A DNA stretch of 32,000 nucleotides from Candidatus Baldrarchaeum yapensis (GCA_016840465.1 JAEOSH010000003.1:60001-92000); one strand, 5' to 3'. Numbered from the stretch's first letter, positions 10,283 to 31,007 are shown. Made by a program: numbers and translations. Notes: generated by a model not told the origin, from the sequence alone.

Positions 10283-11173
10283 TTAGAGACCGATTTTTCT
10301 CAATAGAGGTCTCACGGGTATAATATTGTACTGAAGACCTAATACATGTGGCGATGCACCAAGTGCCAACATTATCAACTGGGTTATAAACACAACCGGA
10401 AGTCCTAACTTCACTCCCATACGGTCCTCTATTTCCTTCTGTCCCCTATCGAATTGCAGGTGGCAGAACACGCAAGGTGTGGTCAGGCAATCGGCGCCTG
10501 CTCTCATCATGTTCTGAACTTTTTCCCTCGTCATGTCTAAACTCACATCTATCGATCCTGCTCTCACCCCGCCACCCGCTCCACAGCACATAAGCTTATC
10601 CCTGTAATCTATACTTATGGCGTTCGTGGTTTCGATAATCCTGTCAAGGATCGTTGGTCGCTCGGGATGCTCATGCCGCCTAACCTCTCTGGGCTTTAAG
10701 AAGTGGCAACCATAATGAGCGGCCACTTTCAAGCCGCTGAGATCTCTTTCTATCTCGCTCCTTATTCTATTCAGCCCTATGTCATGCTCTATCACTTCAA
10801 TTACATGCTTGACCTCTATGGTCCCCTTAAACTCTTTGTCGATGTTCTTTAGGATTTCATTAACCCACTCCCTGAGTTCCTTGTTCTCCTTTAAAAGATG
10901 ATTTGCCTCCTGCAAACTTCCATAGCAGCCGTTACAACATGTTACTATGTCAGCGCCTAGACTCTCGGCAATGCACAGGTTTCTTGCAGCTATAACGATC
11001 CAAGTGTAGAGATCAAAGGATCCAAACACTCCGGGTGCTGGGCAGCAGGAGGCTCCCTTCATATCTAGAAGTTCTATGCCATATCTTGTCATAAGGTATC
11101 TTGTCGAGGCCTCAACGCCCGGGTACCTGTTGGGCATTATGCATCCGAGGAAAAACGCATATTTCTTCGCCAT
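10283..11173 (-). CDS. hdrB: Heterodisulfide reductase subunit B (canonical methanogen type)
   Basis: FFLGCIMPNRYPGVE, CCPAPG, CNGCYGSL, HYGCHFLKP, CCGAGGG and PCVFCHLQFDRGQ give two complete CCG domains. Confidence 0.96.
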   Translation of the reverse strand: MAKKYAFFLGCIMPNRYPGVEASTRYLMTRYGIELLDMKGASCCPAPGVFGSFDLYTWIVIAARNLCIAESLGADIVTCCNGCYGSLQEANHLLKENKELREWVNEILKNIDKEFKGTIEVKHVIEVIEHDIGLNRIRSEIERDLSGLKVAAHYGCHFLKPREVRRHEHPERPTILDRIIETTNAISIDYRDKLMCCGAGGGVRAGSIDVSLDMTREKVQNMMRAGADCLTTPCVFCHLQFDRGQKEIEDRMGVKLGLPVVFITQLIMLALGASPHVLGLQYNIIPVRPLLRKIGL

Positions 11174-11734
11174 TTAACCACTCTCCTGATAACCAACCAT
11201 TTGATCGAATTTCATAATTTTTATCAACTTTCTGACTTCATCCAGCGCCTCGGGATAAGAATGAACCGTGGGTGGCAATTCACTTAAACCTAAAGCCTTT
11301 CTGATCTCTTTAAACTCGTCGGTGATCGGAACTGCGTGACCAAATCTTATAAGAAGCCTTGCAACTCGTTTGTGTTGCTCTTTCATCCTGCCGCTTTTTG
11401 CAGCAATGTTTCTGATCACTCTGATGATGTCCGTAGTTCTGACGCCGCGCGGACACCTCTCATAACACGTATAACAGGTGGTGCAGTACCAGAGCTCTTC
11501 ACTTGAAAGCACCTCATCCTTGAGCCCAAGAAGAGCCTTGCGCATAACTAGACGCGTCCTATAAGCAGTTCTTCTGCCAGATGGGCAACTTCCACTGCAC
11601 GTTCCGCACTGGAAACATGCAGTGATGGTTTCCATATGTTCTCTTCCGAAAATCTTGGACCCGTACTCTATTATCTCCTCAACAAACTTAGGATCGGTTT
11701 TTTCGAGTTGTATGACCTGTTCGGAAGCACTCAT
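11174..11734 (-). CDS. hdrC: Heterodisulfide reductase subunit C
   Basis: CFQCGTCSGSCPSG, CTTCYTCYERCPRGV and GHAVP. ATG at 11734 preceded by GGGTG; the stop abuts the hdrB ATG. Confidence 0.95.
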   Translation of the reverse strand: MSASEQVIQLEKTDPKFVEEIIEYGSKIFGREHMETITACFQCGTCSGSCPSGRRTAYRTRLVMRKALLGLKDEVLSSEELWYCTTCYTCYERCPRGVRTTDIIRVIRNIAAKSGRMKEQHKRVARLLIRFGHAVPITDEFKEIRKALGLSELPPTVHSYPEALDEVRKLIKIMKFDQMVGYQESG

Positions 11735-11854
11735 CGCGGACACCCATTACGGATCAGCCGGGAATTACATACCCGGTGTCCTTTATTTGTTCTTTCCCAA
11801 GAAAAGAGGTATCCTCCAGTTATTCTGGTTATTACGTAAAAAATGTATTGGGGG

Positions 11855-12949
11855 TCAATGCGCATTATACGCGGTCAAAATCGCGTTAACAAAGTCTTCA
11901 GGTGAGGTGCCGCTAGTTCTTATTTTTTTACTCTCAAAGACTTCCACAAGTGCGGACTTTAGGAGGTTCTTATCTAAGCGTAGACCCTTTAATGAGTTTT
12001 CCAAATCGGCTATTGCATCTCGAGGCTCGAGCCAAAAGTCCCCGCTTATCAAAATATCCCTGATCACTTCATCCTCCATCTCGAAAGTCACCCTGATTAA
12101 ACCACCAGGGGACTTATAGACCCCCTCAACGATGTAAGTATCGCCTGCCACCTTAACTTTCCTTGTAGCAAGATTCGGATGTCTCTCCTCGTGTATAAAT
12201 AGCCACTCATGCGAAAGATACTGCTCTCTGAGTTCCCGTATGATTTCCTCCTCTCTTCTCGTCAATTCACCTCTTTCAAGCTTAACATTGAGGTACTTCT
12301 CAAAATTCTTCACTAACAAGTCAACAACTCTGCTTCTATCCGGTACGTACCCTAACTCTCTCCTCAATGAGGTGACCCTTTCCTTCAGACTTTTTGCAAA
12401 CTTGTCCCTGAACTTCTCACTGGGTACCCTGAGAACCTTAACCATTATATCGTAATTAAAGTCGAGAATTATGTTGCCGACGAAGACAAATGCTTTCTCT
12501 ATTTCCCCACCGCCGTTTCCACTGATCTTCCTACCGTTAACCTCTATGTCATTAACGGGTCTAAAGTACGCGTCGACCCCTAACTCCCTATACGTTTGCA
12601 CAGGAGCCCTTAAGAAGTACTCAAATCTACCAACGGTGTCCGCGGGGACATCTGACCAGTCCTGGGGAATCACCAGTTGATAAAATATCTGATTTTCGTC
12701 TAAGTATACGGCCCCGCCGCCAATAACTCTCCTCACTATTGGTATTCCCATTTTCCTGCAAAATTCTATGTCTACCTCCTTTGAAACCTCCTGAAAATAC
12801 CCGCAGGAAACCAGAGGTGATGCCGGCCAGTCTATGAAAAGTGTCGGTGGAATGTCCCCCTCGCTTAGAGCAATCGCCGCTGCATGCCATATTACCTGCG
12901 TCAAAACGGGATCTATCGGCCCAAGAAAAACGTATCGCAGCTTCTTCAT
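11855..12949 (-). CDS. lplA: Lipoate/octanoate:protein ligase with C-terminal accessory domain (LplAB, sLpl(AB)-like)
   Basis: GYFQEVSKEVD, RRVIGGGAVYLDENQIFYQL, VNDIEVNGRKISGNG and the C-terminal KSPGGLI...ISGDF domain. Confidence 0.92.
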   Translation of the reverse strand: MKKLRYVFLGPIDPVLTQVIWHAAAIALSEGDIPPTLFIDWPASPLVSCGYFQEVSKEVDIEFCRKMGIPIVRRVIGGGAVYLDENQIFYQLVIPQDWSDVPADTVGRFEYFLRAPVQTYRELGVDAYFRPVNDIEVNGRKISGNGGGEIEKAFVFVGNIILDFNYDIMVKVLRVPSEKFRDKFAKSLKERVTSLRRELGYVPDRSRVVDLLVKNFEKYLNVKLERGELTRREEEIIRELREQYLSHEWLFIHEERHPNLATRKVKVAGDTYIVEGVYKSPGGLIRVTFEMEDEVIRDILISGDFWLEPRDAIADLENSLKGLRLDKNLLKSALVEVFESKKIRTSGTSPEDFVNAILTAYNAH

Positions 12950-13392
12950 CTCAACTCTCCCTTCTTAAGCTTCTCCTCGTCCTCCTTGATCCACTTCTCT
13001 ATGTTCTCGACACCATGAATTAGATTTTTCAAGTCCTCCTCTAAGTTCGTCGGTTCTATTACCGCGATCCACCCCTCACCGTACGGATCCTCATTTAATA
13101 ACTCGACTCTTTTCTCCTTAACGAGTTTTTCATTCACCTCTATGATCTTCCCGCTGACTGGCGAATACAGAGTTCCGCGCCATTTCCCACTCTCAACAAC
13201 CGCAAGAGGCTTTCCTTGCTCGACATGCCGCCCAACGGGGAGTACTCGTATTGCTATTGCTCGCCCTAAGGCCTGTTGCCCCCAGTCATCTATTCCCACA
13301 CGAACCTTCCCATTTTCAATACGTGCCCACGTGTGCCTTGGATGATAGTAGAGATCCTCGGGGAATTCATATTTTCCGAGTATTTTTACCAA
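12946..13392 (-). CDS. gcvH: GcvH-like lipoyl carrier protein (ESGKW type)
   Basis: FPEDLYY..HTWARIE...VRVGIDD, lipoyl-Lys motif VESGKW, SPVSGKIIEVN and DPYGEGWI. TTG at 13392 follows a GGAGG SD (ORF track uses GTG 13407). ATGA overlap with lplA. Confidence 0.92.
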   Translation of the reverse strand: MVKILGKYEFPEDLYYHPRHTWARIENGKVRVGIDDWGQQALGRAIAIRVLPVGRHVEQGKPLAVVESGKWRGTLYSPVSGKIIEVNEKLVKEKRVELLNEDPYGEGWIAVIEPTNLEEDLKNLIHGVENIEKWIKEDEEKLKKGELR

Positions 13393-13438
13393 TATGCCGA
13401 CCTCCACAATTTCTGAAGAGAAGTCACCGCATTGAGAA

Positions 13439-18837: not shown

Positions 18838-19674
18838 TTAAGGATATGCGAAGATCCACGTTCTAGTTCTAATAATTCTATAACCAAGTCTCCTGTAGAC
18901 CCTTATAGCGGGCTCGTTACCTACCTCTACGTGGAGGCCTGCAGGGATGCTCGAAGCCATCGCTTCCCTTGTCAACGCTGAGGTTACGGCCTTAGCAAAA
19001 CCCTTTCCTCTGTACTCTTTCCTCGTGAATACACCACCTATTACATGGATTTGTGGAAGGGTTATGTATCTCGCAGCTATAGAGGCAAGAGCATTATCGA
19101 TTATTACACCATAATGGGTGTACTCTCTAATGATTTCTCTGGCCTCATCCACGCTCATCTCTGTCCCCCTTTCCAACTCCAAGTCCCTATATAGGAGTGC
19201 ATGCTCCTCCTTCAGCCTCACAGCCATCCTTTCAAGGGGACTAGGCCTGAAATTTTCTGGATCACAGATCATATCATGGAACTCCTCGACATTAAACCTT
19301 TTAAAACCGAGACTTCTAAAGTGATCGGTAATCATTTCTATATCGCTAGAAGTGCTATTATATAGCTGTATATCCGCCATCTTACTTGGAGAGATCTTGA
19401 TTTCCAATATTATGTCGCTAGTAGGATTCCATATGTGGATCTCGTAAATATCTTGAATAGTGAACCTACCACCATGCCATATGAGGGCATAGGACTTGAT
19501 GTCGTCATGCGAAGCAAGCAATAATACCTCGGTTTTATCAGGCTCACGCGTGAGGTAGTAGGTGGCGTAGCAGTGTGCTGATAAGGGGTCACTCCTACAG
19601 AGATCGCTTAGTGCGTTCATCAATCGATTTTGGGCAGAAAGTTGCAAGCCTTTAAATCTAAGTACGGTATTCAT
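18838..19674 (-). CDS. GNAT-family acetyltransferase (C-terminal GNAT domain, N-terminal accessory region)
   Basis: IGGVFTRKEYRGKGFAKAV (motif A) and NEPAIRVYRRLGY (motif B). Confidence 0.88.
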   Translation of the reverse strand: MNTVLRFKGLQLSAQNRLMNALSDLCRSDPLSAHCYATYYLTREPDKTEVLLLASHDDIKSYALIWHGGRFTIQDIYEIHIWNPTSDIILEIKISPSKMADIQLYNSTSSDIEMITDHFRSLGFKRFNVEEFHDMICDPENFRPSPLERMAVRLKEEHALLYRDLELERGTEMSVDEAREIIREYTHYGVIIDNALASIAARYITLPQIHVIGGVFTRKEYRGKGFAKAVTSALTREAMASSIPAGLHVEVGNEPAIRVYRRLGYRIIRTRTWIFAYP

Positions 19675-20180: not shown

Positions 20181-21119
20181 TTAAATTTTCACCCAGATTT
20201 CTTTAATCTTTTCGAGCAGAGGTTGCGTACTTATTGCGTGTAGATGTAAGCATAACTGGGTACGAGGATTTAATCCCAAAACTAGTCCTATTAACTGGCT
20301 GAGGTGGAGAACGGGTATTTGAAAATCTATCTTCCCACTTTTGTACAGATCTCTTTGGCAAATATCAAGCCTGTACATACACGCAGGGCACCACACGACT
20401 ATCATATCTGCACCGACTCTATGGATACTTTCTAACTTCCTTATGCATATATTTTCCGATAACTCGTAATGGACTCGTGACTGTATGCCGGATCCCCCGC
20501 AACACAAGTTTTTCTCCGAGTAATCCACGACCTCGGCCCCTAAATCGCTTAATAACTCGTCTACAAATCTTGGGTTCTTGTGGTCATCGAATTTCCTGAA
20601 CATCAACTCGCGACGATAATGACATCCATAATGCACTGCAACTCTCAGCCCTTCTAGCGAGAATCTCATCCGACGCAGAATTTCATCCTTAAATGCATAA
20701 AACATCTCAGGTACATGGAAGATGTCAACATCTAAGTCGTTTACATCATCGGGAGTCCGACCAATTATCTCAGCTATCCTCCGAGCCAGATCCTCGTTAT
20801 TACTTAGTTCTCGAAGAGCATGATTAAACGCAGTGTAGCATGCGTTACAAACAACAAGTACTGCCTTGCAAGCGAGACTCTTTGCTAGGAGCATATTTCG
20901 GGCGCAGAGGGAAACCATGACTTCGGGTGGCGACATATTCCAAAAGAATGTGGGAAAGCCGCAACATGTCTGGTCATCTGACATCAGGAAGGGTATGTCG
21001 AGAAACTTGAGCACAAAGTACGTGGCCACCTCTATCCCAGGATGGGCCTGCACGCAAGGCCGGAAGAGGAAGAAGGGCACCGTCTCTCTAATAATGCTGA
21101 AGTCCCTATCATTAGACAT
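20181..21119 (-). CDS. hdrB: Divergent heterodisulfide reductase subunit B paralog
   Basis: RPC..AHPGIE, CCGFP, CNACY, HYGCHY, CCGGSG and CPACMYRLD: all ten CCG cysteines are present. Confidence 0.88.
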   Translation of the reverse strand: MSNDRDFSIIRETVPFFLFRPCVQAHPGIEVATYFVLKFLDIPFLMSDDQTCCGFPTFFWNMSPPEVMVSLCARNMLLAKSLACKAVLVVCNACYTAFNHALRELSNNEDLARRIAEIIGRTPDDVNDLDVDIFHVPEMFYAFKDEILRRMRFSLEGLRVAVHYGCHYRRELMFRKFDDHKNPRFVDELLSDLGAEVVDYSEKNLCCGGSGIQSRVHYELSENICIRKLESIHRVGADMIVVWCPACMYRLDICQRDLYKSGKIDFQIPVLHLSQLIGLVLGLNPRTQLCLHLHAISTQPLLEKIKEIWVKI

Positions 21120-21645
21120 TTCTACTCACCTTTTTCATGTATTCTAAGGCTTCTGACTTCTCAAATATGCGCTTAACGTCTCTAAGCGCATCTTCTGAAA
21201 CAGACCTTGGTGGTATACCGACCTCCCTCTGGAGATTTATCAGATTATCTGTTAGCGGAACAGAAAGCCCCGTTTCCATGATGTTTTCCGCGAATTTTAT
21301 TATCTTGCTCATCTTTAATAGCGTGTTTATGTCCTGTAAGAGCACGCCAGCGTATCTGAGATTTATTATGAACAACGCCGGGTTTATCGACCGCGGGCAC
21401 TTCATCGCGCATTCAAAACACAGCAGGCAGTCCCAAATGTTCTCACGTTCAAATATATCACCTAATGAGCATAAAAGGAAACGCCCGACGATCCTTCGGA
21501 TATTAAAGTTGGAAAAGCGTGCCGCTGGGCAATCGCCGACGCACATCCCACACTGGTAGCAGGTTTCTATATTGCCCGCTCTTTTTCTCAAGTCCTCCTT
21601 TATTGCCCGTTCCACGGATTCGGGGATCGTCTGCGATCCTCTCAA
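21112..21645 (-). CDS. hdrC: Divergent heterodisulfide reductase subunit C paralog
   Basis: CYQCGMCVGDCP and WDCLLCFECAMKCP. TTG start; overlaps the hdrB paralog by 8 nt. Confidence 0.87.
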   Translation of the reverse strand: MRGSQTIPESVERAIKEDLRKRAGNIETCYQCGMCVGDCPAARFSNFNIRRIVGRFLLCSLGDIFERENIWDCLLCFECAMKCPRSINPALFIINLRYAGVLLQDINTLLKMSKIIKFAENIMETGLSVPLTDNLINLQREVGIPPRSVSEDALRDVKRIFEKSEALEYMKKVSRNV

Positions 21646-21825: not shown

Positions 21826-22221
21826 TTGTCAATTTTCAAATACTTAAAGCCAAAAATCACGTATAGGGTCATTATAGCTAGAATGCGTCCGAAAGAGGAA
21901 CGTTCCGAGTACGATAGACTCTCAAATGGATATATGGAAATTGCCGCAGTTGCATATTTTAATCCGAGTGATTACGACTCCCTGATAGGTAAGGAGGGTG
22001 GTAATGTTAAGGTGAAGGGCAGGGGAGGGGAGGTAGTACTTAAACCGCTAAAGGACGAAAGAGTTCCCAAGAACACAATAATCATACCGCCGGGACCTTG
22101 GGCTAATGCGTTGATCGATGAGAGTGGCCATGGCGGCATTCCTCATTTTAAGTCCTTAAATGTCGAAGTGATGGTTGTCAAAGAGCCCGTTACCAAGGTA
22201 GAAGAGATTTTAAAAAGGTGA
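21826..22221 (+). CDS. fwdD: FwdD-like molybdopterin-dinucleotide-binding subunit (divergent)
   Basis: FNPSDY...G.NVKV....GEVV, IIIPPGPWANALI and GIPHFK. TTG start after a GGAGGTG SD. Confidence 0.8.
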   Translation: MSIFKYLKPKITYRVIIARMRPKEERSEYDRLSNGYMEIAAVAYFNPSDYDSLIGKEGGNVKVKGRGGEVVLKPLKDERVPKNTIIIPPGPWANALIDESGHGGIPHFKSLNVEVMVVKEPVTKVEEILKR

Positions 22222-22225
22222 TGAT

Positions 22226-23776
22226 ATGTCATCTGGAGCGCCTGAAAAGCTTATTATAAAAGGCGGCGTGGTCGTGGATCCGATTAATGAAATTCGAGGA
22301 GATAAACTCGATATTTTCGTTTCTAATGGAAAGATTTGTGAAGAATTCGATGAAAAGAATGCAAAGATAATAGATGCGGCTGGAAACATCGTTGTTGCCG
22401 GGGCCATCGACCCTCATGCTCATCTCATCACAACAGGATCATTTCTGAGATACTTGGTTCCTGTAGCCCGCAAAGCACCAACTTATGAAATAATAAGAGA
22501 GTATGTGAGGCTGGGATGGACGACGATATCGCTGGTCGGTCCCTCGATTCCCGAAGTACTGCATGTACACACGATCTTACGTAATATTGGTTTCATGGAT
22601 TACGCGATATTTCCCCGCATCGACAATGATCAGATGTTTCTTTCTCTTGTCAGAACGCTGGACATCGCCGGACTTGCGACCTATTTGAGCATCATCGCTA
22701 AGAACTTACAAACGCTCGGTTTTTACATGGTACCGCCTGGCATCCTAGAGGGACAGGTCGCAGGACAAGATATAAAATCCTTGAAAGAAAAAATCAGAGT
22801 GCTGGACATCTCTCCCCTCGAAGCAATTATGGCACTTTTCGATTCCATAAAGAGAATAGGGTCTTTTGTTCCGGTGCAAATAGAGGCGCCTGGACTGACA
22901 AATAGCCCCATCGAAGAATTAAAGGAGATAATTGACGTACTTGGTGATGCAAGTATATTTGTGCCTCATTTATCGTATCATCTTCTGGGAGAGGACATCA
23001 GCACTGAGGAATTGCTGAAGCTTTTCGAGGGTGGCAAAATCTTCGGGGACATCGGAGTGTGCGTAGATAGAAGTATTTCGGTAGCGCCCATAAAAAGGGT
23101 AGATGGATACAAGAATATACGGTGGTTTGCATCTTATGCTTGTGAAATGGAATCGTTTTCCCTCTATGGTCTTTTGGACGAAGAGTTTGCAGAGAAGCAG
23201 TCTTATGAAATTCTCAAAAACGCCTTAATGCTAGCAATTAAGGGAGGTAGGAAGGATAATTTGTCAATTTCAGGAGATATTCCACTATGCTCAGAACCTA
23301 AAGACCTTGCGATATTTATGTGTTCAATTCTTAGTAAGGAGTGCAGAAAGGAGGTTATAGGTCGGCATGCCACAGATGACCTGTCAGCATTACCGGATGT
23401 CAATCTTATAGACGTCATACAAATGACCAGGGCGTCTCCTGCTAAAGCTTTAGGAATCGTAGAGAAAAAGGGACATTTAGGAATCGGCGCAGATGCAGAT
23501 ATCGTAATCTATGACTTTGACATAGAGAGGCAGGACCCGTCGAGAGACTGGAAGGCATTCATGAAAGCGCTCCTGAAGCCGAAATATGTCATAAAGAGTG
23601 GTCAAGTAGTAGTGGTGGACGGCGAAATTACGAGTTCCGCCAATTCTTCTCCCATAATTGGCCGGGCAAAAGATATCGACCAAAAAGAGTTCGAAGAATT
23701 TATTAACAGAGTGAGGAGAACCACAGGCCTTTACTACTCTTGCGTCGTTGAGAATAGATACAGAAGTGTCATGTGA
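22226..23776 (+). CDS. fwdA: FwdA-like amidohydrolase-fold subunit with an altered metal site
   Basis: IIKGG.VVDP.N, IDPHAH, GWTT, MTRASPAKALG..KGHLGIGADADIVIYD and YVIKSGQVVVVDGEI. Colinear with FwdA but divergent in the middle. Confidence 0.8.
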   Translation: MSSGAPEKLIIKGGVVVDPINEIRGDKLDIFVSNGKICEEFDEKNAKIIDAAGNIVVAGAIDPHAHLITTGSFLRYLVPVARKAPTYEIIREYVRLGWTTISLVGPSIPEVLHVHTILRNIGFMDYAIFPRIDNDQMFLSLVRTLDIAGLATYLSIIAKNLQTLGFYMVPPGILEGQVAGQDIKSLKEKIRVLDISPLEAIMALFDSIKRIGSFVPVQIEAPGLTNSPIEELKEIIDVLGDASIFVPHLSYHLLGEDISTEELLKLFEGGKIFGDIGVCVDRSISVAPIKRVDGYKNIRWFASYACEMESFSLYGLLDEEFAEKQSYEILKNALMLAIKGGRKDNLSISGDIPLCSEPKDLAIFMCSILSKECRKEVIGRHATDDLSALPDVNLIDVIQMTRASPAKALGIVEKKGHLGIGADADIVIYDFDIERQDPSRDWKAFMKALLKPKYVIKSGQVVVVDGEITSSANSSPIIGRAKDIDQKEFEEFINRVRRTTGLYYSCVVENRYRSVM

Positions 23777-25076
23777 GTTTTTTGAATTTCCCCCGCTCTA
23801 TAAGTCTTCTTATTCCTATTTTCGATATCTCGTCCTCTAGACGCTTTAACCTCTGTTGTAACTCGTCTTTGACATCTTCAGGTACACTTGGAACTTCTCG
23901 TAACTCTTCCGCTGGAATTCTCTCCTCAATTTCAATTTTCGCATACCGCTGATGCTTTGGTGTTTCACGATTGATAGTTGCATCTATTATTGCTCTTTTC
24001 CTAGACCCTGCCCACAGAGATGGAACCTCCGGATCAATAATGTTCACCGATGTTATCTCGACTTTAATTATATTTTCCGGGCATGCTCTCTCACAAGACC
24101 CGCAGAATATGCATAGACTCTCATTAACGGCTATCTTGCCTTCCCTTTCTGGGTCCTTTGGAATATACCAGCAATTTACGGGACATATGTTTATACAGGC
24201 CTTACAACCAAGCGGATCGCACTTCTCTATATGGAAAAGCTTTATCTTTCCCTCGAAGCGCTTTTTTACCTCAATGGCGTTTCTGGGACAAGTATTGGTA
24301 CACCATCCGCAGTAAATGCAGTTTTCCTCGTTTATAACCACGTCTCCCGTGATGCGTGGTATTTCTATTTCTCTTTCAACTGGTGTTATGCACTTCACCT
24401 CTATTGCCTCATCAGGACAAATCTCTGCACAGAGGCCACAAAAATCACATTTCTCCAAGTTCACACTTATTGAGGAGGCAAAAGTGAGATCTGAGGGATC
24501 CGGCTTTTTCCACTCAATTACTATTGCATCGCACAATTCTGCACAAATACCACAAAATGTGCACTTTTCTTCGTTTATTTTTATTTCACCTTCGATTTTT
24601 TCGGGCATCTTCTTATATCTTACCAGATCTTCCTTCTTTTTAAGTTGAATTCTGACCTCTATACACCTCGTTGGGCAAATAGTCTCGCAAATCCTACAAG
24701 GAATGCACTTCTCTTTATCAATTCTTATACTTCCTACAATCCTCGGATACTCTTTCAGTGTCTCGATTCTCTGACCATTTATTTCGAAAATTATCGCATT
24801 GATAGGACAGATTTCGGCACAAAGACCGCAAAACTGACATTTATCTTGATCAAAGGTTATTTTCGCAAATTTTCCATCCATTTTCCCTGTAGCTATCTGG
24901 GGTATCGGTCCAAGAGAAATAGCACCCGTTGGGCATACCTCTACACATAATCCACATCCGACACACGTGTCCGTATTGTAAATTAGCCTTTTCTTATAAT
25001 TACGCCCAATCCACGTAACTATCATTTCGTTCTCCGTGAAGTCCAATAATATTTGGGGAGAAAACTCATCCGGCAC
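23769..25076 (-). CDS. fwdF: FwdF-like polyferredoxin (8 x [4Fe-4S] motifs)
   Basis: Eight CxxCxxCxxxC motifs, one with the FwdF-typical CDPLGCKAC insertion. The GTG start overlaps the hdrA 3' end. Confidence 0.88.
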   Translation of the reverse strand: MPDEFSPQILLDFTENEMIVTWIGRNYKKRLIYNTDTCVGCGLCVEVCPTGAISLGPIPQIATGKMDGKFAKITFDQDKCQFCGLCAEICPINAIIFEINGQRIETLKEYPRIVGSIRIDKEKCIPCRICETICPTRCIEVRIQLKKKEDLVRYKKMPEKIEGEIKINEEKCTFCGICAELCDAIVIEWKKPDPSDLTFASSISVNLEKCDFCGLCAEICPDEAIEVKCITPVEREIEIPRITGDVVINEENCIYCGWCTNTCPRNAIEVKKRFEGKIKLFHIEKCDPLGCKACINICPVNCWYIPKDPEREGKIAVNESLCIFCGSCERACPENIIKVEITSVNIIDPEVPSLWAGSRKRAIIDATINRETPKHQRYAKIEIEERIPAEELREVPSVPEDVKDELQQRLKRLEDEISKIGIRRLIERGKFKKLT

Positions 25077-27447
25077 TTTTCATCACCAACTCGGAACCTA
25101 TCGGACCCAACTTCTTGAGTTCTTCAACAAACTCCCTGACTATGTTTGCGAATCTCTCTCCTTCGGATGCCGAAGTGCTTGCGATTTTCAATCTGCGTGG
25201 ATTAATCCCCACATTCTCAAGATACTTTTTGAGCGCAGAAATTCGTCTCTCGGCCTTTGAAAAACCTGTCCTGTAATGGCAATCCTGAGGATGACAACCA
25301 ACCACAAGGACTCCATCAGCTCCCGCCTTAAACGCCTCTAATATCATGAGGGGACTGACCCTTGCTGTGCACATGACCCTTATCGGTCTAATGTTGGTTG
25401 GGTATTGTATTTTTGTGGTTCCTGCGAAATCAGCAGCCGCATAACCACACCAATTGCATAAGAATGCAACTATGAGGGGGAATTCGCATTTGTTTTCCAA
25501 TGTTGCATGTATTTGGGCAATTATCTGTTGATTTGTGAAGTAAGGCATATCTAACGCGCCTGTGGGACAAGCGGCAACACAGGCGCCACATCCCAAGCAG
25601 GCACTTGAGTTTATGATAACCCCTTTCTCTTTATCGAATGTCAAAGCCCCCCAATCGCAGGCCTCCTCACAAAGCCTGCATCGCTTACATAGATCTGGAT
25701 TATACGTCGGGACGTAGGGATCCAATTCTATTTTTTCGTGTAGCACAAAGTTCGCTGCATCGAGTGCGGCAGATTTGGAGTGTGCAACCGTGTCCTGAAT
25801 GTCCTTAGGACCTTGAATTGTACCCGCAATGTAAATTCCCTGTATCATGGTCTCTGAAGGGGCAAGCTTCGGATGCCGCTCGAGGAGAAACCCATCAGAG
25901 GATTGAGAAATTCCTAGCATTCGTGCCAAGTCCTCGGTATCAGAGGGAGGAACCAGTCCCACGGACAATACCACGAGATCAGCATTTATTTCCATGATTT
26001 CCCCAGTAAGCGTGTTCTCTGCTCTAACTATGAGATCATCGCCGTTTTCATTTGCGGTGACCGAACTCGCCCTACCTCTTATTATCTTTATTCCGAAATC
26101 TCTCATTGCTTTCAGCAAGAACTCCTCATACCCCTTTCCATACGTTCGTATATCCTGGAAGAGTATGAACACCTCGGCATCAGGTATCCTTTCCTTAATG
26201 CAAATAGCCTCCTTTATGCTGGCCGTACAACAGATCCTAGAACAATAGGGGTTGCCTACGCTTTCGTCCCTACTCCCAACACACTGGATGAACACGATCC
26301 TTCTGGGTTCCTTTCCGTTCGATAACCTGACCACACGTCCGCGCGTTGGGCCACTGGGGCTGAGCAACCTTTCGAGTTCTAGTGATGTTATAACATCGGG
26401 ATACCTTCCGTAGCCGTACTCGCTCTTAAGTCGGGCATCAAAGGTTTCATAACCCGTGGCCACAATAATTGCACCAACATGAATCCTTATCCTTTCTGGC
26501 GTTTGATTGAAATCTATTGCATCGCGTTCACACGCATCTTCACAGTTTCTACAACCTATGCAATGATCTGGGTCTATCACCGCGAGCAGAGGGACTGCTT
26601 GCGGAAACGGTAGATATATTGCCTTTCTTGGCCTCAGTCCCATGTCAAACTCGTTAGGGACCTCCACAGGACATGTTTTTGAACAAATTTCTATGCATCC
26701 GACGCATTTCTCCTCATTTACGTAACGTGGTCGTTTCAGTATCTCTACCTCGAAGTCCCCCGGTCTTCCCTTAATGCTTGTTACCTCCGATAACGTTAGG
26801 ACTTTTATCATAGGATGCTCCGAAACCTCGCTCATGAGAGGGGCCAGTATGCAAATTGAGCAGTCAAGAGTCGGGAAAAGCTTGTCGAGCATAGCCATAT
26901 GCCCGCCCAGCGTCGGTTGCTTTTCGACGAGATAAACCTCAATTCCGAGACTTGCAAGGGAGAGTGCAGCCGTTATTCCAGCGACTCCTCCGCCTATTAC
27001 TAGAACTCTTTTCTTCGCACGTGCGTATCTGCGCTGTATTGGGGTTAGAAGCCTTGCCTTTTCGATTCCCATCTTTATCAGAGCAATAGCCTTGTTTGTC
27101 GCGGCGGTTGGAGAATACATGTGAGGCCAAGAGCATTGTTCACGAATATTCACAAATTCTACCAGAAACGGATTCAAACCCGCCTCTTCTGCTGCTCTTC
27201 TAAAAAGTCTCTCATGAAGCCGCGGGCTGCATGCCGCTATTACAACTTTTGATAATTTTTCCTCTGCTATTTTCCTTTTCAACTCATTAAGCCCTTCCTT
27301 GCTACATAGGTACGTGTGATCCATCACGAAAACGTTGGGGGCCCTCGCTATTTCGTTTAGAACCCGCTTGATGTCTATTACTCCGGCAATGTTCGATCCG
27401 CAATGGCATATGAAAACTCCTATTTTGTCGCTGTCCATATACTTCAT
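25066..27447 (-). CDS. hdrA: HdrA-MvhD fusion (flavin-bifurcating HdrA plus C-terminal [2Fe-2S] MvhD domain)
   Basis: GVFICHCG, CSPRLHE, NIREQCSW, GGGVAG, FPTLDCSIC, inserted and C-terminal ferredoxin pairs, IQCVGSRD and CSRICC. MvhD part: FLCNWCGY, RVMCTARV, GCHPQDCHY. Confidence 0.95.
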   Translation of the reverse strand: MKYMDSDKIGVFICHCGSNIAGVIDIKRVLNEIARAPNVFVMDHTYLCSKEGLNELKRKIAEEKLSKVVIAACSPRLHERLFRRAAEEAGLNPFLVEFVNIREQCSWPHMYSPTAATNKAIALIKMGIEKARLLTPIQRRYARAKKRVLVIGGGVAGITAALSLASLGIEVYLVEKQPTLGGHMAMLDKLFPTLDCSICILAPLMSEVSEHPMIKVLTLSEVTSIKGRPGDFEVEILKRPRYVNEEKCVGCIEICSKTCPVEVPNEFDMGLRPRKAIYLPFPQAVPLLAVIDPDHCIGCRNCEDACERDAIDFNQTPERIRIHVGAIIVATGYETFDARLKSEYGYGRYPDVITSLELERLLSPSGPTRGRVVRLSNGKEPRRIVFIQCVGSRDESVGNPYCSRICCTASIKEAICIKERIPDAEVFILFQDIRTYGKGYEEFLLKAMRDFGIKIIRGRASSVTANENGDDLIVRAENTLTGEIMEINADLVVLSVGLVPPSDTEDLARMLGISQSSDGFLLERHPKLAPSETMIQGIYIAGTIQGPKDIQDTVAHSKSAALDAANFVLHEKIELDPYVPTYNPDLCKRCRLCEEACDWGALTFDKEKGVIINSSACLGCGACVAACPTGALDMPYFTNQQIIAQIHATLENKCEFPLIVAFLCNWCGYAAADFAGTTKIQYPTNIRPIRVMCTARVSPLMILEAFKAGADGVLVVGCHPQDCHYRTGFSKAERRISALKKYLENVGINPRRLKIASTSASEGERFANIVREFVEELKKLGPIGSELVMKSAG

Positions 27448-27554
27448 CTCTTGAAAATAGTGGATTGTGTGCCACCTTGTTGAAAGTAAATAAATGGAAC
27501 CATATACGTATTTCTGACACTGACCTCCGGTTCATATTCCAGAGGTGTAAGAGT

Positions 27555-28019
27555 TTGAAGCCGTCTCCTCTCGAGATATATAAACTACTTCCGAAGACAA
27601 ATTGCAAAAAATGTGGTTTGCCAAACTGTATGGCATTTGCCGTGAGATTACTGAGCGGTCAGGCAAAAATAGAGGACTGCCCCGACCTCGTAGAGAGGGA
27701 GGAGTTCAGAGAGAATTATGAAAAACTTAAGGAGTTGCTGGGAGAAAGACCAGCAGCAGAAGTATCATTACCGAGAATAGATAATGAGGAGGCATGCAAT
27801 GGATGTGGTATCTGTGTGGTGGTTTGCCCTGCGAATGCTAGGGCAGACCCGGAGGTTGGTAGCGGAAAGGGGGCATCCCGAAAGGAAGGTCTCATTTTCG
27901 TGGTTGTTAATGGAAAAGTCAAGATAATGGATATAAGTAAGTGCAGGAGACAGGAAGATTTGACAACGTGTCGTGTGTGCGAGGAGTTCTGCCCAAATAA
28001 TGTCATAAAAATAGGTTAA
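27555..28019 (+). CDS. fwdG: FwdG-like 2x[4Fe-4S] protein with an N-terminal AcsC/RnfB-type Fe-S domain
   Basis: IYKLLPKTNCKKCGLPNCMAFA, then CNGCGICVVVCPANA..PEVGSGKG and C..C.EFCP. TTG at 27555 after a GAGGTG SD (the ORF-track start at 27465 is too far upstream). Confidence 0.82.
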   Translation: MKPSPLEIYKLLPKTNCKKCGLPNCMAFAVRLLSGQAKIEDCPDLVEREEFRENYEKLKELLGERPAAEVSLPRIDNEEACNGCGICVVVCPANARADPEVGSGKGASRKEGLIFVVVNGKVKIMDISKCRRQEDLTTCRVCEEFCPNNVIKIG

Positions 28020-28041: not shown

Positions 28042-29334
28042 ATGAGATCATTTCACAATGTCATATGTACGGGCTGTTCTCTCCTCTGTGATGACATACA
28101 GGTCACTGTCGAGGGCTCGCACATAAAAGAGATTTTAAACGCATGTTCAAAAGGATGCTCAAGGTTCGTTTCGGATCCAAAAGAGGGCAGATTATTGTCT
28201 CCCTTAATAAAGAGGAATGGTCGAGCCGAAAAGGCAAGCCTCGAGGACGCCGTAAAAGAGACCGTTGAAATACTAAAGACTTCCGATAGACCTCTGCTTT
28301 ATGGCTGGAGCAACTGCGTATCGGAAGCTCAAATACTGGGGATAAAAATAGCACGAAAAATCAGAGGAGCAATAGACGCAACATCCAGCTTTTGCCAAGG
28401 CGTCGTATACCTCGCAGCGTGCGAGGCAAAGGGGTATCACACAGTATCCTTGGGCGAGGTATTTAACAGAGCGGATCTACTCGTGTTTTGGGGATGTAAC
28501 CCTGCTGATGCTCATCTCAGGCACTTCAGTAGGTATACTTTCTTTCCACGTGGTAGATACAGACAAACGGGGTTTGAAGAGCGAGATAGTATCCTTATCG
28601 ACGTTAGGGAAAGCGGATCAGCAAAAATTGCAAGGACACCATTGATCATAGAGCCAGAAACTGATTACGAGTTAATACAGACAATAAGGGCGATTATTAA
28701 GGGACACGAAATTCTACATGGAAAAGTCTCCGGTGTAGACTTTGAAAAAGTAAAATCCATTGCGGATAAAATGGTCAACTCCAGATTTTGTGTAATATTC
28801 TATGGGCTGGGCCTATCCGGAACGAAAGGTACTTATAGAAACGTCTCCGCCCTTCTCTCCCTCGTTGACGACATAAACAGGAGAGGAACCCGTTGCGCAG
28901 TAATTCCTATGGCGGGGCATTTTAACATGGTTGGATTTAACAGGGTGCTCCTCGAGTTGACCGGATACCCGTATGGTGTGGACTTTCATGACGGTAGCGC
29001 TTACTGGAACCCAGGTGAAACCACCGCTTTTGATCTATTGAAAAAGGAAGAAGTCGATGCTCTCGTGGTCGTAGGTGCGGATCCTGTCTCCCACTTTCCG
29101 CGGAAAATTGCAAAGTACATATCAGAAATTCCAACTATCTACATAGGGCCTCACGTGACGCCCACCTCAGCCGTAAGCAGAGTCTCTATACCGGCGACAA
29201 TAGCCGGTATAGAACAGGAGGGGGTTGCGTATAGACTCGATGGTCTTCCGCTAAAACTTAAAAAGATAGCAGATCCGCCGGATGGCGTAATTCCCGACGT
29301 AGCCATACTTGAGGCGATCCTTAAGCGCCTATAG
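28042..29334 (+). CDS. fwdB: FwdB-like W/Mo-bis-PGD subunit with altered substrate-pocket residues
   Basis: CTGCSLLCDD...C, PLLYGWS, WGCNP..AH.RH.SRY..FPRG, GADPVSHFP, GIEQEGVAYRLDGLP. The metal-ligand Cys is in SSFCQG. Confidence 0.88.
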   Translation: MRSFHNVICTGCSLLCDDIQVTVEGSHIKEILNACSKGCSRFVSDPKEGRLLSPLIKRNGRAEKASLEDAVKETVEILKTSDRPLLYGWSNCVSEAQILGIKIARKIRGAIDATSSFCQGVVYLAACEAKGYHTVSLGEVFNRADLLVFWGCNPADAHLRHFSRYTFFPRGRYRQTGFEERDSILIDVRESGSAKIARTPLIIEPETDYELIQTIRAIIKGHEILHGKVSGVDFEKVKSIADKMVNSRFCVIFYGLGLSGTKGTYRNVSALLSLVDDINRRGTRCAVIPMAGHFNMVGFNRVLLELTGYPYGVDFHDGSAYWNPGETTAFDLLKKEEVDALVVVGADPVSHFPRKIAKYISEIPTIYIGPHVTPTSAVSRVSIPATIAGIEQEGVAYRLDGLPLKLKKIADPPDGVIPDVAILEAILKRL

Positions 29335-29356: not shown

Positions 29357-30319
29357 ATGAAGCTAAATCCCCCAATAAGTATTAAAGATGCTAAGAAGAT
29401 TCTGTCTGCACCGGATCAGGAGTTAAAGGCTCTCATGGAACATGCGAGGAAAGTCGCGGAGGATATCCATGGGCCGAACATTACTTTCTATGTACCAGGT
29501 AATAGCTTCCCAGCAATTTCGATAACTGGAACGAAGTGCTGGCTGCTATGTAAGCATTGTGTTGGGCATTACTTAAAGGGAATGATACCAGCAACAACTC
29601 CAGACGAGTTTCGAGAACTCTGTGTAAGACTCTGGAAAAGGGGGGCAAAGGGCTGTCTCATAAGTGGTGGTTACACACGCTTCGGTGCACTTCCAATAGA
29701 ATCTTTCTTTGAGGCAATAAAGTATGTGAAGAAAAACACAAAATTGCTACTAAATGTCCATCCCGGGTTTTTATCACGTAATTCAATAATGCGTTTGGTG
29801 CAATGCGGCATCGATGCGGCATCGATAGATGTTGTGGGAAGTGAAGAAACAACAAAACAAGTATATGGCATCAGTAAGGATCCTCAAAGCTATGATAAAT
29901 TATTATGCGAATTTAAAACGGCAGGAGTACCAATATTAGCCCCACACGTCTGTATAGGATTACATTTTGGTAAGCTACTCGGGGAACTTCATGCTCTTTC
30001 AATAATAAGGAATCATGAACCATCGGTTCTCGTATTCATAATCTTTACACCGACTCGTGGAACTCCCATGGAGGCGTGCAGTCCTCCGAACATTAAGGAT
30101 GTTATCAGGCTCATTGTAGCCGCACGTCTGATGATGCCAGGTGTTCCGATATCCCTAGGATGTATGAGACCTAAGGGAACGTATAGAAGGGTTCTAGACG
30201 AAGTGTGCATGAGGGCAGGCGTTAACAGAATAGTTATACCGAGTGGGGTTGCATTAGATGTGGCTCGCGATCTGGGCTATGAGGTGTTAAGTAAAGATTT
30301 ATGTTGTGTTTTCGCATGA
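29357..30319 (+). CDS. Biotin-synthase-like radical SAM enzyme, archaeal lipoyl synthase LipS1-type
   Basis: FPAISITG..CWLLCKHC (CxxxCxxC), GCLISGG, APHVCIGL.FG, LGCMRP and a C-terminal CC. As recalled, GC(M/A)R plus CC characterise LipS1 of the two-protein Thermococcus lipoyl synthase. Confidence 0.78.
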   Translation: MKLNPPISIKDAKKILSAPDQELKALMEHARKVAEDIHGPNITFYVPGNSFPAISITGTKCWLLCKHCVGHYLKGMIPATTPDEFRELCVRLWKRGAKGCLISGGYTRFGALPIESFFEAIKYVKKNTKLLLNVHPGFLSRNSIMRLVQCGIDAASIDVVGSEETTKQVYGISKDPQSYDKLLCEFKTAGVPILAPHVCIGLHFGKLLGELHALSIIRNHEPSVLVFIIFTPTRGTPMEACSPPNIKDVIRLIVAARLMMPGVPISLGCMRPKGTYRRVLDEVCMRAGVNRIVIPSGVALDVARDLGYEVLSKDLCCVFA

Positions 30320-30548: not shown

Positions 30549-31007
30549 CTACGTTTTTCCGAGAAGTTGCTTAAACTCTTTTAACAGGTCCTTGTATAGT
30601 TGCCCTCTAGAGGGAGATGGAGGAGCTTTAGGAGCTGGAGGTGGTGAGGGTTGAGGCGCTGCTGGCGGGGGTGAAGGCGTAGTGGTTTGAGAAGATTGTG
30701 TTTGTGCAGGGCTCATGGAAGCAGGTGAAGCGGATGGAGAAGGTGGAATCGTGACTTGGCTTTGAGCCCGAGGCATTGCCGGTGCTGTGGCATATTGAGG
30801 TGTAGCTTGTGGCTGGGGTGATTGTTGCGGCGATACTCTAGTTTCGAGCCCTCTCAACCTCTTCTCTATGGAATCTATCCTTTGGGAAAATTCATTGCGC
30901 ATTTCCATCATTATTTCTCCGAGTAATGGTACGATTATATTTCTAACTACCTCCAACATCTGTTCCATCACTATTTTCTGTACCCTTTTTTCTAGATCCT
31001 CGGACAT
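30549..31007 (-). CDS. Hypothetical protein: N-terminal helical/coiled-coil, Pro/Ser/Gln-rich linker, C-terminal amphipathic helix
   Basis: 152-aa ORF with an ATG start, GGAG upstream and protein-like segmental composition. It ends 23 nt before the ferredoxin start. Confidence 0.75.
   Translation of the reverse strand: MSEDLEKRVQKIVMEQMLEVVRNIIVPLLGEIMMEMRNEFSQRIDSIEKRLRGLETRVSPQQSPQPQATPQYATAPAMPRAQSQVTIPPSPSASPASMSPAQTQSSQTTTPSPPPAAPQPSPPPAPKAPPSPSRGQLYKDLLKEFKQLLGKT

Follow-up and report, generated by a model that had tools for sequence, protein, structure and literature searches.

The closest described systems to the locus presented here are the formylmethanofuran dehydrogenases (Fwd/Fmd) and the Hdr supercomplexes that contain them. 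The catalytically important residues of FwdB are Cys118, His119 and Arg288 (PMC6926001). In metal-dependent formate dehydrogenases (FDH) the Arg is the formate/CO2/azide site and the His moves in turnover, while nitrate reductases of the same fold have Thr and Met at the Arg and His positions, and exchange of these residues in R. capsulatus FDH altered activity (PMC10385643). FhcB (6S6Y), a member of the bacterial formyltransferase/hydrolase complex, is a FwdB homologue without formate/CO2 redox chemistry. In the solved supercomplexes the polyferredoxin FmdF/FwdF links HdrA to the Fwd BD module and carries low-potential electrons (PMC13518236). For Methanosarcina, fwdG2B2D2 was described as a constitutively transcribed cluster without an assigned function (PMC2838876), in M. 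acetivorans the polyferredoxin linked to HdrA2 was left without a settled role or partner (PMC5296606), and direct HdrABC-Fwd/Fmd coupling has been called unclear (PMC13518236). Hdr gene clusters were surveyed in 2025 in a study that dealt with a different, Cys-less molybdopterin protein and classed FwdB-like genes linked to Hdr as ordinary Fwd (PMC12054007).

We analyzed a 32,000-nucleotide stretch from Candidatus Baldrarchaeum yapensis (GCA_016840465.1 JAEOSH010000003.1:60001-92000), referred to here as the window. Positions 28042..29334 on the plus strand encode a FwdB paralog of 430 aa (P0001), hereafter the variant FwdB. It is 42-44% identical to M. wolfeii FwdB/FmdB (5T5I/5T5M) and shares with it the [4Fe-4S] motif, Cys118, Gly-His293 and a separate FwdD-type cap subunit, yet differs in having His119 replaced by Gln, Arg288 by Ala, Val296 by Met and Pro121 by Val. 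The N-terminal [4Fe-4S] motif C9-x2-C12-x3-C16 (aa 9-16) was placed by script at 28066..28089 on the plus strand, and the fourth cluster Cys, C35, is encoded at 28144-28146 (plus); these four Cys are 100% kept across all sequence groups compared. Ser13, inside the motif, takes the place of the canonical Gly and is a mark of the family described below. Within SSFCQG (aa 115-120) the codons of Cys118-Gln119 lie at 28393..28398, and within PMAGHFN (aa 289-295) those of Ala291-Gly292-His293 lie at 28912..28920, where canonical proteins have Cys-His and Arg-Gly-His, respectively. Met296 follows at 28927-28929, all three on the plus strand. Ala291 is the aligned equivalent of canonical Arg288. The original prediction had located both motifs in 28042-29334 and had given Cys118-His119 and Arg288 for M. 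wolfeii FwdB; translation and script placement reproduced the positions exactly, and the residues given are right according to 5T5I_B and PMC6926001. Its statement that CxxCxxxC and the ligand Cys are retained holds as well, with C9, C12, C16, C35 and C118 all present.

A phmmer search against the PDB aligned the variant FwdB over its full length with M. wolfeii FwdB 5T5I_B (E 1.6e-113), gap-free near both motifs and with gaps of one or two residues elsewhere. TSSFCQGV and PMAGHFN align with TASVCHGP and PMRGHYN, and Cys118 with the W/Mo-ligand Cys118. The same search showed canonical residues at both motifs in 9SFI_Q, which has Sec at 118, and in 8RJA_B. Among the canonical relatives aligned, His119 and Arg288 are each found in 80/80 sequences, and the variant FwdB has neither. 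Such invariance places the substitutions beyond ordinary variation, and the predicted changes of His to Gln and Arg to Ala are real, backed both by the 5T5I_B alignment and by the 80 canonical relatives. The protein passes the curated NCBIfam profile for FwdB (TIGR03129) with 480.4 bits, as compared with a cut-off of 327.8, and automatic annotation would therefore label it as FwdB.

The genome, 2.27 Mb in size and 96% complete, harbors a second FwdB on contig C56, which scores 648 bits against TIGR03129 and is canonical (CH...RGH). The only canonical FwdA and FwdC of the genome are both located on C56, and the variant FwdB is a paralog separate from the canonical CO2-fixing formylmethanofuran dehydrogenase of this organism. 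Both FwdB copies have their closest relatives among Asgard proteins, and McrA was not found in the 96% complete genome. That the variant might still be a CO2 reductase, i.e. a formylmethanofuran dehydrogenase isoenzyme with a different proton relay, would agree with its TIGR03129 score and its fold, with the kept Cys118 and His293, with Hdr wiring as in true Fwd and with the FwdD- and FwdA-like partners in its gene block; it is nonetheless made quite improbable by the invariance of Arg and His in 80 canonical sequences and three solved FwdB/FmdB, by the identity of this Arg as the substrate site in FDH (PMC10385643), by the altered condensation site of the FwdA-like neighbor, and by gene content. 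The block lacks FwdC, of which this genome has one canonical gene, and a canonical copy coexists with the variant in every genome checked, including 5/5 other variant-bearing genomes. At C56:56529-70611 a full HdrA paralog and several HdrA-like fragments lie among the canonical fwdG-D-B, fwdA and fwdC genes. Linkage to Hdr genes is therefore not specific to the variant, and the genome seems to possess a canonical as well as a variant Hdr-Fwd set.

Contigs of other metagenome runs covered both motifs of the variant FwdB and had them unchanged. The differences observed numbered 19, 14 synonymous and 5 non-synonymous, one of them a silent change within the Gly292 codon. The variant FwdB is accordingly a real gene, and the 14:5 ratio is that of a gene under purifying selection. 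Only one near relative was found among about 15 billion proteins, at 69% identity on a 2.3-kb contig. It carries the same C-Q...A-G-H signature, and its gene order (Fe-S gene, FwdB-like gene, LipS1) is that of the window.

More distant relatives are numerous. A list of homologs, free of the scan bias noted below, comprised 71 proteins with the signature C-H-R-H and about 40 with C-Q-[AVG]-H or C-H-A-H, and so showed the same split between C-H-R-H and C-Q/H-small-H as the family loci; representatives of 50%-identity clusters added many further non-canonical signatures. The original prediction had proposed searching for a clade with the CQG/AGH signature, and more than 100 sequences with CQG/xGH were found in ANME-2, Methanoperedens, Methanolobus and Asgard archaea. 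C-Q-[AVI]-H occurs in Methanoperedens, ANME-2 and Methanolobus, C-Q-G-H in Loki-, Hod-, Thor-, Hermod- and Odin-type Asgard archaea, C-H-A-H in Jord- and Freyarchaeia, Bathyarchaeia and Thermoproteota, and C-L...V-G-H in two Methanolobus-family genomes (L126, L127). A variant ortholog is present in 32 of 41 sampled Methanolobus-family genomes. Arg is replaced in 82/82 family loci, a count that is biased by a scan pattern demanding [AVG]GH; 80 of these loci came from the scan of species-representative genomes and two had been fetched earlier. In the Arg-less family, position 119 varies among H, Q and L and position 291 among A, G, V, I and S. The variant FwdB shows all of the derived states common to the family, namely Ser13, a non-basic residue at 119, non-Pro121, a small side chain at 291, Met296 and Gly345. 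Judged by these sequences, Arg-less FwdB is a widespread and conserved paralog family.

In a quick maximum-likelihood tree, a branch with 88% SH-aLRT support puts all Arg-less rows on one side, with the variant FwdB and P0152 on a basal fork of unresolved order. The change from His to Gln must have taken place at least five times on this tree. A single origin of the Cys-Gln signature was considered and rejected, as one C-Q clade failed the AU test (p 4e-6; the C-Q group tested was named only after inspection of the tree).

Individual members depart further from the canonical site. A same-order relative (G007, L123:5444-6724) reads C-H...A-E-N and is without His293, and a Helarchaeota sequence (L015) reads T-T...D-G and is without Cys118. 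Losses of this kind, together with the variable positions 119 and 291, resemble catalytic-site decay, and the variability at 119 and 291 also speaks against one defined new chemistry. In contrast, strict conservation of C-Q-G and G-H-x-N-M inside large clades argues for function. Among the Cys118-keeping variants (n=132), G120, G292 and H293 are each kept in at least 90%, but in Cys118-less sequences they drop to 48%, 41% and 24%, respectively. This co-variation with Cys118 suggests that the metal site is still under selection in the Cys-keeping members, the variant FwdB included. Overall retention of canonical-conserved positions was also tried as a test for cofactor binders and was rejected, since it gave no separation (77% in P0001, 58-74% in Cys-keeping and 67% in Cys-less sequences).

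One alternative to an active enzyme is that the pterin has been lost or is non-catalytic, leaving the variant FwdB as an Fe-S or scaffold subunit of an Hdr complex, i.e. a pseudo-enzyme or redox relay. Comparable cases are NuoG and the inactive FdhA-like subunits found in certain Hdr complexes. Such a role would account for cluster Cys that are 100% kept while the catalytic positions erode by lineage, and it has precedents in FhcB (PMC6926001), in Hdr-linked Molybdop proteins predicted to be unable to bind cofactor (PMC12054007) and in Elp (PMC13518236). Damage is also apparent in the FwdA-like neighbors, with the catalytic Asp changed to Asn in 38 of 44 FwdA-like genes of Asgard FwdB-variant operons, in which all metal ligands are kept, and with the carboxy-Lys gone in the window. 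Harder to reconcile with an empty site are the joint retention of Cys118, G120, G292 and H293 in the Cys-keeping variants and their loss together elsewhere, the strictly conserved clade motifs, the retained FwdD-like cap, and a backbone without FhcB-type loop remodelling. All told, we give the pseudo-enzyme appreciable weight, well short of even odds.

The backbone evidence comes from modeling. The AF2 model of the variant FwdB (pLDDT 95.6) superposes on 5T5M_B with TM 0.96 and an rmsd of 1.4 A over 429 columns, as compared with TM of only 0.70 against cofactor-free FhcB, although the AF2 alignment held canonical sequences, which pulls the model toward a canonical backbone. With only one- or two-residue gaps in the sequence alignment, the cofactor-expelling loop changes of FhcB are not seen. 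FhcB has dispensed with Cys118, its Fe-S domain, the FwdD cap and the cofactor; the corresponding sequence features are all kept in the variant FwdB. From the Cys118 co-variation, the FwdB-like backbone and the FwdD-like partner we infer that a pterin-metal cofactor may still be bound. The original prediction, which is partly supported overall, envisaged a larger pocket and a different substrate; the exchange of Val296 for Met may, however, fill the space. A Gln/Ala/Met site would be neutral and without an acid-base group, which makes formate/CO2 turnover unlikely, and as the whole family is without the Arg a normal formate/CO2 site is unlikely throughout. NapA/Nas and R. capsulatus FDH H387M/R587T have the same two second-sphere positions replaced, with changed specificity (PMC10385643). 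Both have the Cys-ligated Mo-bisPGD fold. Nap carries Met and Thr at these positions and binds the anion with a further Arg; in the variant FwdB no basic residue that could compensate was identified, and nothing in it points to nitrate.

A complex model of the variant FwdB with the Fe-S subunit encoded directly upstream scored 0.90, against 0.00 for the best of three controls, and the mark applied to this score was reached by 58/80 solved complexes and by 2/110 mismatched pairs. Contact agreement between runs was at least 95% and the pLDDT of the partner at least 83. The predicted interface joins residues 30-39 of the variant FwdB, around the fourth cluster Cys, with ferredoxin motif 111-120 of the Fe-S subunit. 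The pass may reflect likeness to solved FwdB-FwdG.

The genes around the variant FwdB form a block rich in Hdr components, and this context, on which the original prediction was silent, is the strongest clue to function. At its left end, HdrB2 (20181-21119) and HdrC2 (21112-21645), both divergent, are located on the minus strand. A FwdD-like molybdopterin-cap domain protein is encoded at 21826..22221 on the plus strand and scores 66.6 bits, under the cut-off of 175; it is the likely partner of the variant FwdB. The next plus-strand gene (22226..23776) encodes a divergent FwdA-like amidohydrolase with the site residues H,H,Y,Q,E,H,D, in which HxH, one His and the Asp are kept, the carboxy-Lys is Tyr, and two His are Gln and Glu. 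On the minus strand there follow a FwdF-like polyferredoxin (23769..25076; NF042909, 293 bits) and an HdrA2-type HdrA fused to MvhD (25066..27447; NF040770, 1106 bits, cut-off 1100). The FwdG2-like Fe-S subunit, on the plus strand at 27465..28019, combines a PF04060 4-Cys domain with a 2x[4Fe-4S] ferredoxin domain and ends 22 nt upstream of the variant FwdB. Its ORF as called begins (27465-27560) with a TTG start 17 nt from the start of hdrA2 on the opposite strand. Since every one of the 17 homologues starts some 32 codons further on, the true start is probably downstream, near codon 33, which would probably leave about 110 nt of divergent promoter region between the Fe-S subunit gene and hdrA2. 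A LipS1-type radical SAM lipoyl synthase is encoded at 29357..30319 on the plus strand, 22 nt 3' of the variant FwdB. This adjacency is kept in the 69% relative (L110:1571-2356; LipS1 58% identical), and no other LipS1-like gene of the genome was recovered by tblastn with the window LipS1 as query. FwdC is absent from the window, the sole canonical copy of the genome being that on C56.

Much of this arrangement recurs in other archaea. The PF04060-plus-ferredoxin gene is directly upstream of the FwdB-like gene in 79/82 family loci, and a FwdD-like gene is usually next after it, to which Loki-type Asgard archaea add a FwdA-like gene. In the window no FwdD-like gene is directly downstream; LipS1 is found there instead, and the FwdD-like gene lies 6 kb away, a placement that matches L013, L014 and L123. 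Without the FwdA-like gene and LipS1, the layout of the block recurs in L013 (Bathyarchaeia) and L014 (Hodarchaeota); the same-order relative (L123) is similar, but has the Fe-S and FwdB-like genes upstream of HdrA2 on the same strand. HdrA2 and/or polyferredoxin genes are found within 9 kb of the Arg-less FwdB gene in the window, in the same-order relative and in Bathyarchaeia, Thermoproteota, Hodarchaeia, Loki-type Asgard archaea, Methanolobus and two Methanolobus-family genomes. In the latter two (L126:3628-11190 and L127:8545-18053, from genomes of 4.2 Mb and 3.7 Mb) a G-B-D cluster is located 1.7-3.5 kb from an hdrA2-polyferredoxin pair, a linkage we did not find mentioned in the Methanosarcina literature examined.

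Methanosarcina fwdG2B2D2 shares the order Fe-S gene, B, D with the Arg-less family loci, and the variant FwdB is 36-39% identical to B subunits of this type. The Methanosarcina cluster probably belongs to the Arg-less family, as judged through the Methanolobus-family genomes and not from the M. acetivorans genes themselves. Unlike in fwdG2B2D2, B is followed by LipS1 in the window and D is found with the A-like gene 6 kb upstream.

Fdh-Hdr-Fmd (7BKB) and Hdr-Vhu-Fwd (PMC13518236) hold HdrA, polyferredoxin and Fwd BD in series, and the same genes are present in the block. In these complexes, however, the B subunit is canonical and CO2-reducing, whereas in the window the B, A and HdrBC components are each a divergent paralog, and the block adjoins neither a hydrogenase nor an Fdh donor module. 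Also unlike canonical Fwd, the block has no FwdC and its FwdA-like protein has no carboxy-Lys. The best explanation, to which we assign a probability of roughly 0.55, is that the variant FwdB is the B subunit of a second Fwd-like module in an Hdr-type flavin-based electron-bifurcating complex. The module would consist of the Fe-S subunit, the variant FwdB, the FwdD-like protein and, here, also the FwdA-like protein, and the complex would add HdrA2-MvhD, the FwdF-like polyferredoxin and HdrB2C2. Electrons leaving HdrA2 would travel via the polyferredoxin and then the three-cluster Fe-S subunit, reach the [4Fe-4S] cluster of the variant FwdB and continue to a Cys-ligated W/Mo-bis-pterin capped by the FwdD-like protein; the opposite direction is also possible. 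A site without the anion-binding Arg and the acid-base His should neither bind nor convert formate/CO2. The protein might then either reduce an uncharged low-potential substrate or do no more than relay or store electrons at the low-potential end of the complex.

The steps of this proposal differ in strength. The odds lean, if slightly, towards an Hdr-linked, Fwd-like module that has given up formate chemistry. A pterin site acting on a new, neutral substrate is a more tentative proposition, rated somewhat below an even chance. As far as sequence can tell, decay of the site into a redox relay would fit the H/Q/L and A/G/V/I/S states and the losses of His293 and Cys118 about as well as new chemistry would. 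Repeated linkage of the Arg-less family to HdrA2 and polyferredoxin genes offers a concrete candidate partner for that polyferredoxin, and in its fullest form the proposal would make the variant FwdG-B-D(-A) module the missing HdrA2-polyferredoxin partner, a neutral-pocket W/Mo-pterin reductase using bifurcation-derived electrons on an uncharged substrate, a reading to which we give a chance well short of even. If true, it would represent a new enzyme activity hidden under the name 'formylmethanofuran dehydrogenase subunit B', from Asgard archaea and Bathyarchaeia to Methanosarcina.

In the literature searched on fwdG2B2D2, Asgard Fwd and HdrA2-polyferredoxin-Fwd, taken outside subscription journals, neither the altered site nor the HdrA2-polyferredoxin link was found described, and within the same scope the Arg-less family appears only as the annotated cluster fwdG2B2D2. 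Because these proteins bear the FwdB name in databases and pass the curated profile, a CO2-reducing enzyme may be counted wrongly when metabolism is reconstructed for Asgard archaea, Bathyarchaeia, ANME-2 and Methanosarcina. As Methanosarcina is genetically tractable, the question of what the variant FwdB does is directly testable there.

Several further features of the window were noted. Two minus-strand ORFs situated between annotated genes, at 18838-19674 (278 aa) and 30549-31007 (152 aa), have no significant NCBIfam match; the second has no Pfam match either and is Pro-, Ser- and Gln-rich. A second HdrB/HdrC pair, canonical-scoring, is located on the minus strand within 10283-13407. Genes for a lipoate-protein ligase and for a lipoyl carrier resembling GcvH follow it on the same strand, an association of HdrB/HdrC with lipoate genes that is reminiscent of the sHdr systems, which depend on lipoate, in sulfur oxidisers.
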